A stretch of 64,000 nucleotides of DNA, from NCBI RefSeq assembly GCF_965641715.1, contig NZ_OZ282453.1; one strand, given 5' to 3'. Each line of letters starts with the position of its first letter. The first letter of the stretch is position 1. The notes beneath the pieces are model-generated. The model searched no databases, had not been told where the DNA came from, and worked only from the letters and a program-made list of their open reading frames with translations. This document shows, piece by piece, positions 27,618-52,351 of the stretch. The stretch comes from Escherichia coli (GTDB lineage: Bacteria > Pseudomonadota > Gammaproteobacteria > Enterobacterales > Enterobacteriaceae). The translations under genes were made by a program, and so were the position numbers.

Positions 27618-27863
27618 ACCTTTTTTCTCCTGTAAATAAAAAAGAGCCACCAGCGGCCCACCAAAAAACACCCCGTCAAAGACACCTGCACCCACAGATG
27701 CCTTTTGTGTGGTGTTATTCAGATTTGCGCAGTAAAGGCCAGAGAACAACCATCACCATCGCTACCAGCACGCCATCAGCCAGAACCGACATCAGCCGTC
27801 CGGCAAAATCTACTGCCACTACCAGAAACAGCAGGATGGCAGCCAGCACAAGACGTGCACTTT

Positions 27864-28850: not shown

Positions 28851-29358
28851 GAGCAGGCCTCCGTAACCACAATAATGATACTGATAACAGACCTTCAATA
28901 TGATTGAACGGAAGCCTACAATGAACCGCAAGACAGCGGGGAACACCGCTGTGAACATAAACTTGCTGTCTTCCGGGTCGGGAGTAATATTACCGATAAT
29001 TCATATGACATCAAAAACTAATTAGTTTTCAGATTTAAAAATATGTATAAATCTGTATCAATTACATACAGTTTATGTTATTCCATCCAGAATTCTGATT
29101 TCGCACAGGAGATTGCGTAAAAACTAACACAAATATAAACGATTTGGGAACACACTGATTCAGTTGTCGCAATAAATAACAGGAAACACTCCGGGAATAA
29201 CAGATCGCAAGACTTACATCAGCAGGAGTTTTTGCAACATTTAACGTTAATTGTATCGTTGATAGAAAATCTATGACGCAATATGGTGAACTAACAGAGC
29301 CTGACGAATATCCCAATTACGCCGAGCTAATAGCGCTGCCAGCTAAACTTGCATGGAA

Positions 29359-29435
29359 TGGTCCGCCACCGGGTGCTCGAACCTCGCACAATCAACTTAG
29401 AAGGCTGATGCTCTATCCAGATGAGCTGGTGGCGG
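29359..29435 (-). tRNA. tRNA-Arg (anticodon UCU)-like, phage-encoded; T-stem imperfect
   Basis: Acceptor stem CCGCCAC/GTGGCGG, D-arm GCTC-ATCTGGATA-GAGC, anticodon loop CTTCTAA, 3' ACCA; two mismatches in the T-stem. Confidence 0.55.
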
Positions 29436-29437
29436 AA

Positions 29438-29513
29438 TGGTGGCCCTTGCTGGATTTGAACCAGCGACCTGGCGATTATGAGTCGCTCGCTCTAACCACT
29501 GAGCTAAAGGGCC
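29438..29513 (-). tRNA. ileZ: tRNA-Ile2 (anticodon CAU, ileX/ileZ-like), phage-encoded
   Basis: Minus strand GGCCCTTTAGCTCAGTGGTTAGAGCGAGCGACTCATAATCGCCAGGTCGCTGGTTCAAATCCAGCAAGGGCCACCA is near-identical to recalled E. coli tRNA-Ile2. Confidence 0.85.
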
Positions 29514-36872: not shown

Positions 36873-37105
36873 GCTGCACCTCCGAGATGCTTCATGTTTT
36901 TTCCGGAGCGAAAGGTTATAAGCGGCATACTGACGCGGTAATTACGGCCCAGCGGTTCACAAATCACCTTCTGACATTCACGGTCCACCAGGCTAACACG
37001 TAGAACATGCCCTGCGGGCGTGGTGTACCACTGACCAACGGTAGGAATTGATGTTTTTTTACGCTGAAGCAAACGGCAAATATTGAGGATCAACGGATTA
37101 AGCAT
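36869..37105 (-). CDS. Hypothetical protein
   Basis: 78-aa ORF translationally coupled (ATGA overlaps) within the early-right operon. Confidence 0.4.
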   Translation of the reverse strand: MLNPLILNICRLLQRKKTSIPTVGQWYTTPAGHVLRVSLVDRECQKVICEPLGRNYRVSMPLITFRSGKNMKHLGGAA

Positions 37106-37934
37106 GACGATGCCCTCCGCTGATATTCAGGAAACGGTGAATATGAAGATTAGCCTTATCCGCCAGACGAATACGTTCAGCCTGCAAGTTAAGAAGGGTT
37201 TCTACCAGAACCTGATGCGCCTGCGGATCCGAAAGAGTTACCTTGCGCAGAGCACGTAGTGCAGTTGTTACATAGCTGAGTTTATGTAAGTCTTCATCAT
37301 TCAGACGAGTGAGGGCTGGGACAGTAGCCATGATGGCAGCCTCCGTATGCAATGGATAACTTCCACCACCGGAAACGCCAATTTCGCTGGTGGTGAACTG
37401 AGCAGGGTTGGCGTAACCGGCGCATACGGAAACCGGCGCACCTTTCGGTGCCCCCACCCAGCCCACCATAATTTGGGTATAGCTGAGTTGTAGCAACAAA
37501 AAAGACGCTAACGCGCCAATTGTCGCCGTATGCAATTCCAGGACGCCAATCCCGGCACCCGCTTTATAAGGTGCCTGAACAGTGTAACGTCCCGGAATGG
37601 CAGAATCAATGTGCTGGTGGTCCTTCACACTCAACAAAATCACGCCTGAATTTCCACAAAGGGCTAAAGCACTCATGCGGGTAGTCTTTGCGAAGATAGA
37701 TAACGCGCTGTGTTTCTGGTTCCCAACGAATAACATGGACATAAAGCCCTCTTCCGTCACGAAACCAGCGGTTAAGTTCCCGCACAACTCGCCCCCCACA
37801 GTCAGGTAAAGTTCTCTGTGGTTACTTACAGCCAGGTGATTTGGTAATCTGCATTCATGCCGTAACAACAGGTGTTCAGCGACACTGACCACCAGCTGTT
37901 GCGACAAACGGTTATTTGCCGTTAAACTGTTCAT
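37098..37934 (-). CDS. Hypothetical early-right operon protein (YdaU-like by position and size only)
   Basis: 278-aa ORF coupled to flanking genes; no motif recognised. Confidence 0.5.
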   Translation of the reverse strand: MNSLTANNRLSQQLVVSVAEHLLLRHECRLPNHLAVSNHRELYLTVGGELCGNLTAGFVTEEGFMSMLFVGNQKHSALSIFAKTTRMSALALCGNSGVILLSVKDHQHIDSAIPGRYTVQAPYKAGAGIGVLELHTATIGALASFLLLQLSYTQIMVGWVGAPKGAPVSVCAGYANPAQFTTSEIGVSGGGSYPLHTEAAIMATVPALTRLNDEDLHKLSYVTTALRALRKVTLSDPQAHQVLVETLLNLQAERIRLADKANLHIHRFLNISGGHRHA

Positions 37935-38494
37935 GCGTTAGTTTCTCCACAGACACAAAACGCCACGACGCCCGGAGCTGCACACTCGCGGGCGTCACTC
38001 TTTTCTGGAGCGCAAAAGATTTTGTAGACCAGTGCTGCATGCTCTTGGAGCTTCGAAATTGACAGATACAACTCATCATTAATTGCTGTCTGCTCGTGTG
38101 GCTCCACGACCCCATCTTCGATTGCCGAACGAATCTGCTTTGAGTAATTCCCGATCTGTTCGATGACTTCCAGCAGGCGCTGGTTTATATCGGCGTTCTC
38201 TACTTCCTCAATTTCAGGAAGCGATACGAACACCCCACCAGCAGACTGTGCGACAGCATCCGCAATGTAGTGAGTGCCAGCCGCGCGCTGTAAAACCATT
38301 GCCCATCCCAGCGGGAAAATCTGATCGCCATCGGCACGAAGGCGGTTAAATAATGCGTTCTCTGTTACATCCAGCCAGTCAGCTGCTTCAGCGTAACCAC
38401 CCGGCAACGCTGCGATAGTTTTTCTGACAGCTTTCACGTACCACTCAGGCTGTTTTTCTACTTTCCAGTGATACTTACCCACGGTTAGCCTCAT
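37931..38494 (-). CDS. Hypothetical regulator (CII/YdaT-like by position)
   Basis: 187-aa ORF 32 bp downstream of the cro-like gene. Confidence 0.45.
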   Translation of the reverse strand: MRLTVGKYHWKVEKQPEWYVKAVRKTIAALPGGYAEAADWLDVTENALFNRLRADGDQIFPLGWAMVLQRAAGTHYIADAVAQSAGGVFVSLPEIEEVENADINQRLLEVIEQIGNYSKQIRSAIEDGVVEPHEQTAINDELYLSISKLQEHAALVYKIFCAPEKSDARECAAPGVVAFCVCGETNA

Positions 38495-38525
38495 CGTTCT
38501 GTGGTTAAAAATTGAAGGTGTTCTG

Positions 38526-38726
38526 TTAATCTTTCGGATAGATATCCGGCCTTAAGTCAGATTTCGTAATTGCACCTGACGTGCATTGCTCAAGTTTTTT
38601 CGCCAGCACAAAACTGGCTTTTTTATAACCATTGAAAACCAGCCGTAAGTAGCCAGGTGTTGAGCCAACTTTTCCGGCCAACTCGCCCTGCTGTTCTTTG
38701 GTTAAAGAGTCCCAATACGCTTTCAT
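38526..38726 (-). CDS. Cro/YdaS-like HTH regulator
   Basis: 67 aa starting MKAYWDSLTKEQQGELAGKVGSTPGYLRLVFNG; GGAGG RBS; divergent from cI. Confidence 0.75.
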   Translation of the reverse strand: MKAYWDSLTKEQQGELAGKVGSTPGYLRLVFNGYKKASFVLAKKLEQCTSGAITKSDLRPDIYPKD

Positions 38727-38729
38727 ACA

Positions 38730-38800
38730 ATATGTACCTCCGATATACATATTACATGATTGAAATGAACCTTCAAGATACTTGTACCTTATCGGTACAA
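38730..38800. promoter_or_regulatory. Immunity switch operator/promoter region with two palindromes (ATATGTA-N9-TACATAT; TTGTACC-N5-GGTACAA)
   Basis: Inverted repeats read directly between divergent cro-like and cI starts. Confidence 0.6.
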
Positions 38801-38816
38801 AGGTTTTAATTTCGTT

Positions 38817-39491
38817 ATGAAAACAATCCATGACATCCGGCGGTCTAACGCCAGAAAACTGAGAGATGGTGTTGGCGGGAATTCTTCCTTTGCCACCATG
38901 ATTGATCGCGAGCCAACCCAGACCAGCAGGTTTATGGGAGATGGTGCTACTAAAAATATCGGTGACAGCATGGCGCGGCACATCGAAAAATGTTTCGACC
39001 TGCCTGTCGGATGGCTTGATCAAGAACACCAGACCACGAACATCACAAAAAAACCTGATGTTTCAATCACTAACAAACAAATAACGTTAGTCCCTGTCAT
39101 ATCATGGGTACAGGCCGGAGCATGGAAAGAAGTTGGCTATTCTGAGGTTGATTTGAGCACAGCAGAAACTTACCCCTGCCCTGTACCCTGTGGCGAAATG
39201 ACTTATATCTTGCGGGTGATTGGTGATTCAATGATTGATGAGTACCGCCCTGGAGACATGATTTTTGTTGATCCCGAAGTCCCTGCCTGCCACGGTGACG
39301 ACGTTATTGCATTGATGCACGATACAGGCGAAACCACCTTCAAGCGATTGATAGAAGATGGAACACAGCGTTATCTCAAAGCATTAAACCCAAACTGGCC
39401 TGAGCCTTACATTAAGATTAACGGTAATTGCTCTATAATTGGTACAGTGATTTTCTCGGGAAAACCAAGAAGATACACAATAAAGGCCTAA
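38817..39491 (+). CDS. cI: CI-like repressor (HTH + S24 LexA-type autopeptidase domain)
   Basis: N-terminal HTH, C-terminal GDSM serine motif and downstream Lys; divergent from cro-like gene. Confidence 0.85.
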   Translation: MKTIHDIRRSNARKLRDGVGGNSSFATMIDREPTQTSRFMGDGATKNIGDSMARHIEKCFDLPVGWLDQEHQTTNITKKPDVSITNKQITLVPVISWVQAGAWKEVGYSEVDLSTAETYPCPVPCGEMTYILRVIGDSMIDEYRPGDMIFVDPEVPACHGDDVIALMHDTGETTFKRLIEDGTQRYLKALNPNWPEPYIKINGNCSIIGTVIFSGKPRRYTIKA

Positions 39492-39503
39492 TCAATATTT
39501 ATG

Positions 39504-39527
39504 AACCTGCTTCGGCAGGTTTTTTTA
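39504..39527 (+). terminator. Rho-independent terminator after cI
   Basis: CCTGCTTCGGCAGG hairpin followed by TTTTTTT. Confidence 0.7.
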
Positions 39528-39530
39528 TAC

Positions 39531-39558
39531 TTGACAATGTACCCATGGGATACATAAT
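39531..39558 (+). promoter_or_regulatory. PL-like sigma70 promoter (TTGACA-16-CATAAT) with overlapping operator-like palindrome ATGTACCCATGGGATACAT
   Basis: Consensus -35 and near-consensus -10 read directly; the palindrome shares the TGTAC half-site with the cI/cro operators. Confidence 0.55.
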
Positions 39559-39978
39559 GTATCCAAAAGAAACATGAGGCAGGCAAGATTCAAACAAAAT
39601 TTGGTTGTAACACGGCGTATGGCACATGCGTCGTTAGCGGTCTGGGGACGTTAAAGGGGACAATCCACTTCTTGCTCGGGCAAACAAACCAGGTAGCCGG
39701 AATGTGCAAGTCAATGATGATGCTGATAAGACGCCTAACCAGCGTGGCGATCCGGTTTGACGCCTGGGAAGAGACCAGGGTGCAACGATGAGGGCATTTA
39801 TAGAGCCGCGACAAAGTGTGGTGCCGTAACTGGCTAAGTGCTCTCAGCGTTGTGGTAATCCGCGAAATGGCGCGGCGGTAAGTATGGCGGGGTTACTCTT
39901 TCCCCGTTGAGGACACCGGATTGTCAGGTTGACCATACGCCTGAGTGACAACCCCACCACAACAGCCACTGCTTTGGC

Positions 39979-40022
39979 GGTACCAGTTTGTACACTTGCT
40001 TCCGGCTGGTACCGCTCTTTTT
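39979..40022 (+). terminator. Terminator-like hairpin in the early-left leader (GGTACCAG...CTGGTACC + T-run)
   Basis: 8-bp perfect stem followed by GCTCTTTTT. Confidence 0.45.
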
Positions 40023-40159
40023 ACAAAACAGAGAAGAGCATCACCGGACGACGGGCTCATAACCCAATCCATCCGGGCGGCTGCCACCGCAGGTGTTCTT
40101 CTCTGTTTTGTGGAGAAACCAACCGACCTTGCAGGGTCGATATGATGAGGAGCAGCAAA

Positions 40160-51724: not shown

Positions 51725-51905
<181 letters not shown>

Positions 51906-52028: not shown

Positions 52029-52115
52029 GCGAAGGTGGCGGAATTGGTAGACGCGCTAGCTTCAGGTGTTAGTGTCCTTACGGACGTGGGGGTTCAAGTC
52101 CCCCCCCTCGCACCA
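52029..52115 (+). tRNA. leuQ: tRNA-Leu (CAG)
   Basis: GCGAAGGTGGCGGAATTGGTAGACGCG...GGTTCAAGTCCCCCCCCTCGCACCA, 87 nt, first of three tandem copies. Confidence 0.95.
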
Positions 52116-52143
52116 AAAACCACGTTGATATTGCTCGCACTGG

Positions 52144-52230
52144 GCGAAGGTGGCGGAATTGGTAGACGCGCTAGCTTCAGGTGTTAGTGTTCTTACGGAC
52201 GTGGGGGTTCAAGTCCCCCCCCTCGCACCA
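52144..52230 (+). tRNA. leuP: tRNA-Leu (CAG)
   Basis: Second tandem copy, one nucleotide different in the variable arm. Confidence 0.95.
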
Positions 52231-52264
52231 AACGAGGCGATATCAAAAAAAGTAAGATGACTGT

Positions 52265-52351
52265 GCGAAGGTGGCGGAATTGGTAGACGCGCTAGCTTCA
52301 GGTGTTAGTGTCCTTACGGACGTGGGGGTTCAAGTCCCCCCCCTCGCACCA
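52265..52351 (+). tRNA. leuV: tRNA-Leu (CAG)
   Basis: Third tandem copy. Confidence 0.95.

Follow-up and report, generated by a model that had tools for sequence, protein, structure and literature searches.

The closest known relatives of the locus analysed here are the immunity regions of prophage e14 of E. coli K-12 (ymfK/cohE, ymfT/croE and ymfL) and of phage SfV (cI and cro). In K-12, ymfJ and intE on the PL arm of e14 and ymfM on its PR arm are co-induced at a late stage of the SOS response, about 40 minutes after the LexA targets (PMC11002266). Both arms form one expression module, and sfiC/ymfM has been reported to be SOS-inducible and not under LexA control. Transcription of K-12 ymfK starts at the first base of the start codon, that is, with a leader length of 0 (PMC4681348 Table S3). 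The GenBank record of SfV marks a "putative operator region" corresponding to 38732-38800 of the window, by which we mean the whole 64,000-nucleotide stretch of DNA that was analysed; this interval runs from O1 through O2 as defined below. The searchable literature yielded no binding or reporter experiment on either of the regulators YmfK and YmfT, and no binding data for the repressor family to which YmfK belongs.

The present locus carries the same genes, intergenic sequence and PL-like promoter as e14 and SfV, at 96-100% identity. It departs from them beyond PL, where e14 has ymfJ-xis-int and SfV an inserted orf33, whereas here a leader of about 575 nt is followed by yfdP, yfdQ and yfdR-like genes (a comparison of the PL leader with Rfam at a relaxed threshold returned sub-threshold noise only).

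The immunity module and its repressor

We are highly confident that the region is the immunity module, or genetic switch, of an e14/SfV-type lambdoid prophage, and that the full switch reading developed below applies to it. The module is an already annotated immunity type, a known system and not a novel one. It was assigned to the e14/SfV/cdtI/Stx2c-phage group, being 100% identical to an E. coli prophage whose genes are annotated ymfK, ymfT and ymfL; identity to phages Ayreon, 2H10, cdtI, SfV and the Stx2c phages is 96-99% (98-99% for Ayreon, 2H10 and cdtI), and at least 80% of the 1.8-kb stretch is found in 563 of 5426 complete E. coli genomes. Its genes are as follows.

37931..38494, minus strand: ymfL, CII-like regulator (Phage_CP76 family), second gene of the PR operon (Pfam PF06892, E 1.2e-14; RefSeq name ymfL)
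38526..38726, minus strand: ymfT, cro-like, 66 aa, YdaS-family helix-turn-helix (open reading frame; weak Pfam YdaS_toxin and HTH_3 matches)
38817..39491, plus strand: ymfK (cohE), CI-like repressor, 224 aa (open reading frame; Pfam S24; alignment with the lambda CI C-terminal domain)

As the initial annotation had it, the cro-like and cI genes diverge from ATG codons at 38726 (minus strand) and 38817, with putative operators between them. The cro-like gene, annotated as ymfT or Cro in RefSeq and phage records, is preceded by a GGAGG Shine-Dalgarno sequence at 38741-38737.

The LexA-type S24 domain ascribed to the cI product was recovered by Pfam (Peptidase_S24, PF00717, E 1.5e-26, residues 93-212). 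GDSM occurs twice in YmfK, the catalytic copy being the VIGDSM that contains Ser138, and alignment with lambda CI pairs PVISWVQAGAW with PVFSHVQAGMF, GDSM with GNSM and TFKRL with TFKKL, giving a predicted cleavage site at Ala100-Gly101 and a predicted catalytic pair of Ser138 and Lys176. The N-terminal DNA-binding domain occupies approximately residues 1-75 and is 98.8-100% identical to its counterparts in SfV, SfIV, cdtI, Ayreon, 2H10 and the Stx2c phages. No HTH model was matched in a Pfam search of YmfK; a profile built from six homologues matched the N-terminal domain of the phage repressor in PDB 5D50 (E 4e-11, residues 1-74) and, weakly, the N-terminal domains of other phage CI proteins. 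With its S24 domain, Ala-Gly site, Ser/Lys dyad and helix-turn-helix-type N-terminal domain, YmfK has the make-up of the LexA/CI-type self-cleaving (S24) repressors. The RecA-dependent induction predicted for this prophage fits both the Ala-Gly/Ser/Lys signature and the published late-SOS induction of e14.

Putative operators and promoters

The initial annotation had named two palindromes between the divergent genes, ATATGTA-N9-TACATAT and TTGTACC-N5-GGTACAA, which are present at 38730-38752 and 38782-38800, and a near-palindrome overlapping the promoter downstream of cI, which is ATGTACCCATGGGATACAT at 39537-39555. The register of the first did not hold: it had to be recast to the 17-bp TGTACC-TCCGA-TATACA at 38733-38749, like the other two. 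O1, O2 and O3 then become copies of one 17-bp motif in one register, TGTAYC-N5-GRTACA, accompanied by two weaker copies, O2' (38766-38782) and O4 (39558-39574). Every putative operator falls on a core promoter element.

38733..38749, unstranded: O1, putative operator TGTACCTCCGATATACA, sharing bases with the cro Shine-Dalgarno sequence, the predicted PR start (about 38742) and the final position of the PR -10
38749..38754, minus strand: predicted PR -10, TAATAT, read from the sequence and conserved across family members
38766..38782, unstranded: O2', candidate weak operator TGAACCTTCAAGATACT, covering the PR -35 and centred at -43 of PRM
38771..38776, minus strand: predicted PR -35, TTGAAG, with a 16-nt spacer to the -10, read from the sequence
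38782..38810, plus strand: predicted PRM, -35 TTGTAC (38782-38787), 17-nt spacer, -10 TTTAAT (38805-38810), start at the A of the ATG, 38817
38783..38799, unstranded: O2, putative operator TGTACCTTATCGGTACA, a perfect match (0 mismatches), overlapping the PRM -35 and spacer
39503..39529, plus strand: intrinsic terminator of the cI transcript (hairpin 39503-39522), found by a terminator scan and also marked as such in the records of SfV and Ayreon
39531..39558, plus strand: PL-like promoter, TTGACA-16-CATAAT, consensus score 11/12
39538..39554, unstranded: O3, putative operator TGTACCCATGGGATACA, within the PL spacer and extending 2 bp into the -10
39558..39574, unstranded: O4, weaker putative operator TGTATCCAAAAGAAACA, 1 mismatch to the relaxed consensus, 20 bp from O3

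Because the K-12 ymfK start has been mapped to the A of the ATG (PMC4681348), the PRM start was placed there, giving a leaderless mRNA; the sequence upstream of ymfK differs from that of K-12 at four positions, none of which lies in a promoter hexamer or an O2 half-site, and the PRM -10 TTTAAT is kept at a fixed distance in relatives. The predicted PR is weak by consensus, scoring 8/12 and thus falling under the threshold of the promoter scan; in its -35 the TTG is kept across relatives and the last three bases vary. O2 is centred at -26 of PRM and at about -48 of PR, and its natural variation is almost wholly confined to the central 5 bp, one half-site position differing in a single contig. 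O1 is more symmetric in K-12 e14 (TGTACCTCCGGTGTACA), and an equivalent site occupies the same position in Edwardsiella and Pseudomonas phages. The centre-to-centre spacings in OR are 33 and 17 bp. No site 20 bp to either side of O1 or O2, as in the O3-O4 pair, was seen by inspection, and the sole near-site between O1 and O2 is O2'.

At the far end of cI, the consensus promoter proposed in the initial annotation follows a terminator-like hairpin, with TTGACA at 39531-39536 and CATAAT at 39553-39558 separated by 16 nt. A promoter after cI is likewise marked at the corresponding place in the Ayreon record, and PL TTGACAA is invariant in enteric relatives. The start of PL is predicted at about 39565. 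The terminator stem shows compensatory changes among relatives, and the arrangement of terminator followed by TTGACA-A-O3-TAA-O4 recurs in 23 of 24 distinct enteric relatives, the remaining one having a mutated O3 left half. The central 5 bp of O3 are hypervariable and its half-sites are kept. O4 is present in all enteric relatives, and homology between mosaic types stops just past it.

The alternative that survives best concerns the two weaker sites. Perhaps the true operators are confined to O1, O2 and O3, while O2' and O4 owe their conservation to their overlap with promoter elements and not to bound protein, and we would grant this a minor but appreciable likelihood. O2' contains the PR -35 and O4 lies over the PL start region, and each has one degenerate half (TGAACC...GATACT, with 2 mismatches to the relaxed consensus, and TGTATC...GAAACA, respectively); their conservation could partly reflect promoter elements rather than binding. 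Yet conservation is strong for the GGTTCA within the PR spacer, which is unusual for a promoter spacer. Of 51 distinct enteric versions of the intergenic region, 43 keep O2' at exactly 2 mismatches, and no alternative register in the stretch from O1 to O2 has fewer than 5; the Pseudomonas counterpart of O2' is TGTACCGTCAAGGTTCT. O4, for its part, begins at the last T of the PL -10, which is exactly the position held by O1 at PR; K-12, SfV and most relatives carry a perfect TGTACC in the left half of O4, and in Edwardsiella phage EPP-1 O4 is a good full site (TGTACTTATAAGATACA).

Conservation of the sites and the proteins that may read them

Two kinds of relatives were compared. A search with the alignment of the N-terminal domain returned 99-100% identical loci only, and these served for polymorphism counts and not for divergence: variable positions numbered 2 of 24 in the half-sites, as against 8 of 10 in the central spacers and 17 of 56 in other intergenic sequence (Fisher p = 1e-4 and 0.045), and at PL the mean minor-allele frequency was 0.034 in half-sites versus 0.258 in spacers. 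Relative to K-12 e14 and SfV, the half-sites are identical except for one base in O1 and one in O4, both nearer to the consensus in K-12.

More diverse relatives came from tblastn against phages and from a DNA-pattern scan. O1, O2, O3 and O4 occupy the same places in Edwardsiella phage EPP-1, whose N-terminal domain is 64% identical, and O1, O2' and O2 recur in otherwise unrelated DNA in Pseudomonas phages CF3a and LESphi3 (55-59% identical in that domain), with O1 and O2 spaced by 51 bp rather than the 50 bp found here. The repressors of EPP-1, CF3a, LESphi3 and the present prophage have the helix RE(P/A)TQxSR in common; beside the cI of H-19B, which is 41% identical and has a different helix, the repeats differ and the motif is absent. 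The two-site DNA pattern by itself retrieved at least 120 viral contigs, and 120 of the 120 listed encode an adjoining YmfK-like N-terminal domain (36 distinct sequences, 55-100% identical), where the pattern fixes the O1 and O2 half-sites by construction and many of the contigs are near-identical prophages and not independent.

The motif search in relatives that the initial annotation had proposed finds TGTAC sites in matching places on the promoters of relatives from Escherichia and Edwardsiella, and from Pseudomonas as regards OR. Its suggestion that the shared TGTAC core marks the targets of the repressor gains support from the contrast between half-sites and spacers, from the way in which motif and recognition helix travel together and from the 120 listed contigs. 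The further claim of a specificity different from that of lambda also holds, since the motif is unlike the lambda operators as generally known. On sequence grounds, its interpretation of the region as a switch is supported.

Since the cro and CI genes co-occur in every relative, the comparative data cannot tell which of the two proteins reads the motif, and it could be argued that the Cro-like YmfT is the main or sole reader of the TGTAC sites, with YmfK recognising something else in the region. In keeping with this, YmfT homologues accompany the motif in all relatives examined, the Pseudomonas phages included, the Cro proteins of these relatives have a YLRxV...LRPD(I/L)Y pattern in common, and in the CP-933P switch PaaR2 and YdaS both bind the intergenic region (PMC8630535). 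We nevertheless regard it as improbable. A lysogen must repress PL and PR via its repressor, and these repeats are the only ones on both promoters, no second repeat family being seen at OR and PL alike; wherever the motif is kept the recognition helix of YmfK does not vary, and where the motif is lost the helix differs; and the lambda precedent is one of shared and not separate sites.

It is very improbable that the palindromes have no operator role and are either chance occurrences in AT-rich promoter DNA or, for O2, a terminator hairpin. A terminator scan does flag 38782-38800 as a terminator-like hairpin, but O2 lies upstream of the mapped leaderless start as well as upstream of PR and is therefore contained in neither transcript; we rejected it as a terminator, as it falls outside every mapped or predicted transcript. 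As to chance, TGTACC-N5-GGTACA with up to 2 mismatches has 6 matches in the window, 3 of them in the immunity region, where 1.24 are expected, and the relaxed TGTAYC-N5-GRTACA, a consensus derived in part from the same sites that it scores, has 5 matches in 38700-39600, lying within 850 bp, whereas 2000 dinucleotide shuffles gave 0.12 on average and never more than 2. The relaxed consensus is also matched at 135, 2170, 7525, 8497 and 29054, with 1 mismatch at 2170 and 29054 (by our own estimate, about 0.5 matches with at most 1 mismatch are expected by chance in 64 kb); none of these five is at a recognisable early promoter, and we judged them to be chance matches and not operators. Moreover, site positions are kept across genera inside unrelated flanking DNA, and the comparative data already contradict a chance origin.

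Least credible of all is direct control of PR and PL by host LexA instead of the phage repressor, since, although older compilations list some e14 genes (intE, ymfJ) as LexA-regulated (discussed in PMC11002266), no CTGT-N8-ACAG box with up to 1 mismatch is present at PR or PL in 38500-39700, and both the lag of some 40 minutes behind the LexA targets and the reported LexA independence of sfiC speak against it.

Returning to YmfK as the reader of the motif, we infer physical binding, a hierarchy of sites, the PR and PL starts, roles for O2' and O4 and an effect of O2 on PRM from the observed sequence features, conservation and domain architecture, together with published work on the leaderless start and on SOS induction of both K-12 e14 arms. 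YmfK would most likely bind as a dimer to the 17-bp TGTAYC-N5-GRTACA operators. Occupancy of O1 would cover the -10 edge, start and ribosome-binding site of PR, the ymfT promoter, and occupancy of the weak O2' would cover the PR -35. PRM, from which the leaderless repressor mRNA is transcribed, would be covered by O2 over its -35 and spacer, giving negative autoregulation. O3 and O4, 20 bp apart, would act on the spacer and on the -10 and start of the strong PL-like promoter, which is predicted to drive the leftward early genes. In a lysogen, YmfK would thus shut both PR and PL. Upon DNA damage, RecA-stimulated self-cleavage at Ala100-Gly101 by the Ser138/Lys176 dyad would separate the DNA-binding from the dimerisation domain, and PR and PL would both fire. 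The Cro-like YmfT probably uses the same sites. The same switch acting on both arms would explain why the two e14 arms display a single late-SOS behavior in K-12 transcriptomes.

For annotation, the analysis yields a usable operator consensus, TGTAYC-N5-GRTACA, and a promoter map for one of the commonest prophage immunity types of E. coli and Shigella, that of e14, SfV/SfIV, cdtI and the Stx2c phages. Homoimmunity within the e14/SfV group is predicted from the shared repressor DNA-binding domain and operators, and the analysis predicts which prophages should be homoimmune. No new question is opened, given the lambda-type architecture and the operator interval already flagged in the SfV record.

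Comparison with known switches

Beyond e14 and SfV, the repressor of 199 aa in PDB 5D50 is related to YmfK through a homologous N-terminal DNA-binding domain; this region alone was matched, no S24-domain match having been obtained in these searches. We take the protein to be Rep of Salmonella phage SPC32H, which is inactivated by an antirepressor.

Prophage CP-933P of E. coli O157:H7, with its PaaR2/YdaS/YdaT system, is likewise a lambdoid immunity region and resembles the present locus in its YdaS-family Cro, its CP76/YdaT-type CII analogue and its leaderless repressor gene, and also in having operators common to OR and a PL-like promoter, for which the binding of both regulators has been demonstrated experimentally (PMC8630535). 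It differs in that PaaR2 is not an S24 protein and is encoded in an operon with a toxin-antitoxin pair, whereas the repressor here is predicted to be SOS-cleavable, and in that its repeats are 18-bp palindromes of the GTTTAGTAA type.

With lambda, the locus shares divergent cI and cro genes, 17-bp pseudo-symmetric putative operators on PR, PRM and PL, and a leaderless cI mRNA, as well as the S24 C-terminal domain with its Ala-Gly cleavage site and Ser/Lys dyad and, here as a prediction, SOS induction. As expected of a lambda-type switch, the divergent genes share putative operators over PR/PRM and a second set lies on PL. Lambda itself has three tandem operators spaced by about 23-24 bp, the one on PR being the strongest and OR2 activating PRM; that arrangement of sites is not found here. 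The OR spacings of 33 and 17 bp compare with 24 and 23 bp in lambda, OL comprises two sites separated by 20 bp, the operators are unrelated to those of lambda in sequence, and the N-terminal domain is not detectably lambda-like, PDB 5D50 being its closest solved relative. There is no rexAB between cI and PL, and the CII analogue belongs to the CP76/YdaT type.

The best-matching site is on PRM instead of PR, the reverse of the lambda affinity order, and the regulatory logic is therefore uncertain. It is conceivable, and we put it forward only tentatively, that the switch is wired unlike that of lambda and that this wiring is conserved from Enterobacteriaceae to Pseudomonas, combining tight negative autoregulation with activation or looping between O1 and O2/O2'. 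The features that lie behind this suggestion are the sole perfect operator, O2, on the repressor's own promoter and the O1-O2 phasing fixed at 50-51 bp; O2', centred at -43 of PRM and covering the PR -35, would in such a scheme be a deliberately weakened site whose TGAACC half is invariant. If true, it would represent a distinct, uncharacterised operator logic of a widespread repressor family. Taken together, the switch is lambda-like in outline, without the operator geometry of lambda.

A shared motif at the predicted PR, PRM and PL promoters

The initial annotation had reported two palindromes, ATATGTA-N9-TACATAT (38730-38752) and TTGTACC-N5-GGTACAA (38782-38800), between the divergent cro-like and cI-like repressor genes, as well as a near-palindrome, ATGTACCCATGGGATACAT (39537-39555), within a promoter downstream of cI, and had taken their shared core as a sign of repressor binding. 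All three elements are present where described, and all proved to be copies of one 17-bp site, TGTACC-N5-GGTACA. Two weaker copies, which fit the relaxed consensus TGTAYC-N5-GRTACA, are regarded from their sequence as further candidate operators, giving three sites at the intergenic OR (O1, O2' and O2) and two at PL (O3 and O4).

38726-38526, minus: cro-like gene ymfT, 66 aa, with a GGAGG Shine-Dalgarno at 38741-38737
38733-38749: O1, TGTACCTCCGATATACA
38776-38771 and 38754-38749, minus: predicted PR (towards cro), -35 TTGAAG, 16 nt, -10 TAATAT, placed by inspection
38766-38782: O2', TGAACCTTCAAGATACT, weaker copy (relaxed consensus)
38783-38799: O2, TGTACCTTATCGGTACA, perfect match to TGTACC-N5-GGTACA
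38817-39491, plus: repressor gene ymfK, 224 aa
39503-39522: intrinsic-terminator-like hairpin after the repressor gene, followed by a T run
39531-39536 and 39553-39558: PL-like promoter, TTGACA, 16 nt, CATAAT (11/12), directly after the hairpin
39538-39554: O3, TGTACCCATGGGATACA
39558-39574: O4, TGTATCCAAAAGAAACA, weaker copy (relaxed consensus)

With up to two mismatches, TGTACC-N5-GGTACA matches the window six times against 1.24 expected, and three of the six lie in the immunity region. The relaxed consensus, which was partly derived from the same sites on which it was scored, occurs five times in 850 bp versus five times in the remaining 63 kb; in 2000 dinucleotide shuffles of the region, copies averaged 0.12 and never exceeded 2. 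One mismatch from this consensus are TGTATCAATTACATACA (29054-29070), in AT-rich intergenic DNA about 300 bp from phage tRNA genes, and a match at 2170-2186; since about 0.5 such matches are expected per 64 kb, both are treated as chance, a distal operator at 29054-29070 being conceivable.

Transcription of ymfK in K-12 starts at the first base of the start codon, that is, with a leader length of 0, according to differential RNA-seq (PMC4681348, text and Table S3), and the DNA upstream of the gene shows four differences between K-12 and the window, all outside the promoter hexamers and the O2 half-sites. Together these place the PRM +1 at 38817, its -10 (TTTAAT) at 38805-38810 and its -35 (TTGTAC) at 38782-38787, so that O2 covers the -35 and the spacer (centre at -26); O2' is centred at -43. 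The predicted PR is weak (8/12) and absent from promoter-scan calls; its TTG and -10 are kept in relatives. Its -35 is covered by O2', and O1, beginning with the final T of its -10, extends over the predicted start site and the Shine-Dalgarno of cro. At PL the spacer is filled by O3, and O4 begins with the final T of the -10, matching the geometry of O1 at PR.

The left half and spacer of O1 (38733-38741, TGTACCTCC) are the complement of the cro Shine-Dalgarno (GGAGGTACA), so that a single sequence doubles as predicted operator and ribosome-binding site, an overlap kept in 112 of 120 contigs among the matches listed by a DNA-pattern scan. This accounts for the fixed TCC at the start of the O1 spacer, in contrast to the freely varying spacers of O2 and O3.

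Between PL and yfdP (start near 40142) lies a leader of about 575 nt (39575-40141, plus), for which the ORF list holds overlapping frames only and the Ayreon phage record two small hypothetical proteins. Its RNA folds far better than shuffles (z = -4.96) and contains a terminator-like hairpin, GCGGTACCAG/CTGGTACCGC (39977-40015), then a T run, and an inverted repeat with 25-nt arms (40023-40111); no Rfam family matched the leader. As N is reported absent from this phage group (PMC3851460), antitermination by an RNA element or by some other device is conceivable there.

Conservation of the sites in near and distant relatives

Over the 1.8 kb around the sites, identity is 100% to a prophage in E. 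coli STEFF_1, 99.8-99.9% to many further E. coli genomes, 98-99% to phages Ayreon, 2H10 and cdtI and to a number of Stx2c phages, and 96%, an insertion aside, to SfV and SfIV; the module is also present in e14, a cryptic prophage of K-12. When the window, e14, SfV and Ayreon are aligned, all substitutions in O2 and O3 fall within the central 5 bp, and the K-12 changes in O1 lie in the spacer or raise the symmetry of the right half. Among 80 near-identical viral contigs (32 distinct intergenic variants), 2 of 24 half-site positions vary, against 8 of 10 in the central spacers (Fisher p = 1e-4) and 17 of 56 elsewhere in the intergenic region (p = 0.045). Minor-allele frequencies at PL average 0.034 for half-site positions and 0.258 for spacers. 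The downstream DNA comes in two mosaic types, whose homology to each other stops just past O4, near 39575, which places O4 within the immunity module.

Three groups of relatives emerged from a tblastn search with the first 81 residues of the repressor. Edwardsiella phage EPP-1 (64% identity) has TGTACCTCCTAGATACA adjoining the cro ATG, TGTACCAATTTGGTACA 50 bp off and, after the cI terminator, TTGACAaTGTACCCATGCGGTACAtaaTGTACTTATAAGATACA, that is, O3 with a good O4. Pseudomonas phages (CF3a and LESphi3 among them; 55-59%) have three sites amid otherwise unrelated DNA: O1, TGTACCTCCTGGGTACA; an O2'-like site, TGTACCGTCAAGGTTCT; and O2, TGTACATTTCTGGTACA, 51 bp from O1. The predicted recognition helix, REPTQxSR, is kept in both groups; H-19B-type cI (41%) has the helix SPSQLTQ and different repeats, of TTATCA type. 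The PL/O3/O4 unit is absent from the DNA after cI in the Pseudomonas relatives, where two copies of CTGTATATACA(G/A) lie about 40-110 nt past the cI stop, upstream of a gene annotated BrnT (LESphi3 record) and then the gene of a transcriptional repressor; presumably the two copies are that module's own operators.

In the reverse direction, a viral-contig collection was scanned for nothing but a DNA pattern, a pair of sites separated by 30-37 nt. The scan found at least 120 loci, and a YmfK-like N-terminal domain adjoins the sites in all 120 listed, these comprising 36 distinct N-terminal sequences, 55-100% identical and all with RE(P/A)TQxSR; the pattern fixes the O1 and O2 half-sites, and many contigs are closely related. 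Among the 51 distinct intergenic variants, 43 hold O2' at exactly 2 mismatches, all other registers between O1 and O2 having at least 5. Of 24 distinct enteric relatives, 23 have the order terminator, TTGACA-A-O3-TAA-O4 after cI, and one has a mutated O3 left half; across this set terminator stems change by compensation and O3 spacers are hypervariable.

The repressor, its induction and the neighbouring genes

In RefSeq the genes appear as ymfK (LexA-family protein), ymfT (YdaS-family HTH) and ymfL, with yfdP downstream; Pfam gives weak YdaS/HTH_3 matches for Cro and Phage_CP76 (CII-like) for the next gene. The S24 domain and GDSM motif ascribed to the cI product are borne out by Pfam (Peptidase_S24, E 1.5e-26) and by alignment of its C-terminal domain with lambda CI, which pairs the VQAG cleavage site, the catalytic serine (GDSM/GNSM) and the lysine (TFKRL/TFKKL). 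Cleavage is predicted at Ala100-Gly101, with Ser138 and Lys176 as predicted catalytic residues; a second GDSM (residues 49-52), in the DNA-binding domain, is non-catalytic. The N-terminal-domain profile matches the repressor in PDB 5D50 (E 4e-11), Rep of Salmonella phage SPC32H.

In K-12, ymfJ and intE on the PL arm of e14 and ymfM on the PR arm are induced jointly and late, about 50 minutes after DNA damage, which the authors ascribe to a CI-like repressor (PMC11002266). The sfiC/ymfM gene is SOS-inducible outside LexA control, and the two arms behave as a single expression module that is active in fur mutants and under peroxide. No LexA box was found at PR or PL.

Shortly after ymfL, within the PR operon, a C4 antisense RNA (37386-37473, minus, 80.7 bits) and an isrK Hfq-binding RNA (37498-37574, minus, 61.2 bits) look like a P1/P7-type or Gifsy-1-type antisense-controlled module in the early right operon; a 278-aa ORF (37098-37934) is probably spurious where it overlaps them. 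Farther off lie:

27767-27858, minus: phage-type tRNA Arg-UCU
29359-29435, minus: phage-type tRNA Arg-UCU
29438-29513, minus: phage-type tRNA Met-CAU
51807-51889: naRNA4/REP-type element
52029-52351, plus: three tandem tRNA-Leu(CAG) genes

The last two resemble host chromosome (leuQPV-like) bordering the prophage.

A probable lambda-type switch with a distinct operator specificity

The evidence best supports a switch of the lambda type whose operator specificity is its own. In this reading, YmfK dimers at the three OR sites and at O3 and O4 would shut PR and PL until RecA-stimulated self-cleavage of YmfK lifted repression. The elements first described are confirmed and their interpretation supported. 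CI and Cro co-occur in every relative, so that comparison does not assign the sites to either protein; by analogy, YmfT probably uses the same sites, as has been shown by experiment for a related pair, CP-933P PaaR2/YdaS. The perfect site on PRM may serve tight autorepression or be a favoured Cro site. No binding study of YmfK/CohE or YmfT/CroE was found in the searchable literature.

The intergenic operators and the downstream promoter had both been noticed earlier: the SfV GenBank record (2002) carries a regulatory feature, "putative operator region", which, placed by cro offset, equals 38732-38800 of the window, exactly O1 to O2; the cI terminator is marked in this record too, and in the Ayreon record a promoter is annotated at the equivalent of 39530-39557. 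The system is an already-annotated, very common prophage immunity type. What this analysis adds is an explicit operator consensus, a map of five sites and a geometry that differs from that of lambda, the sites being spaced 33 and 17 bp apart at OR and 20 bp apart at OL, and the O1-O2 phasing of 50-51 bp being kept across genera.
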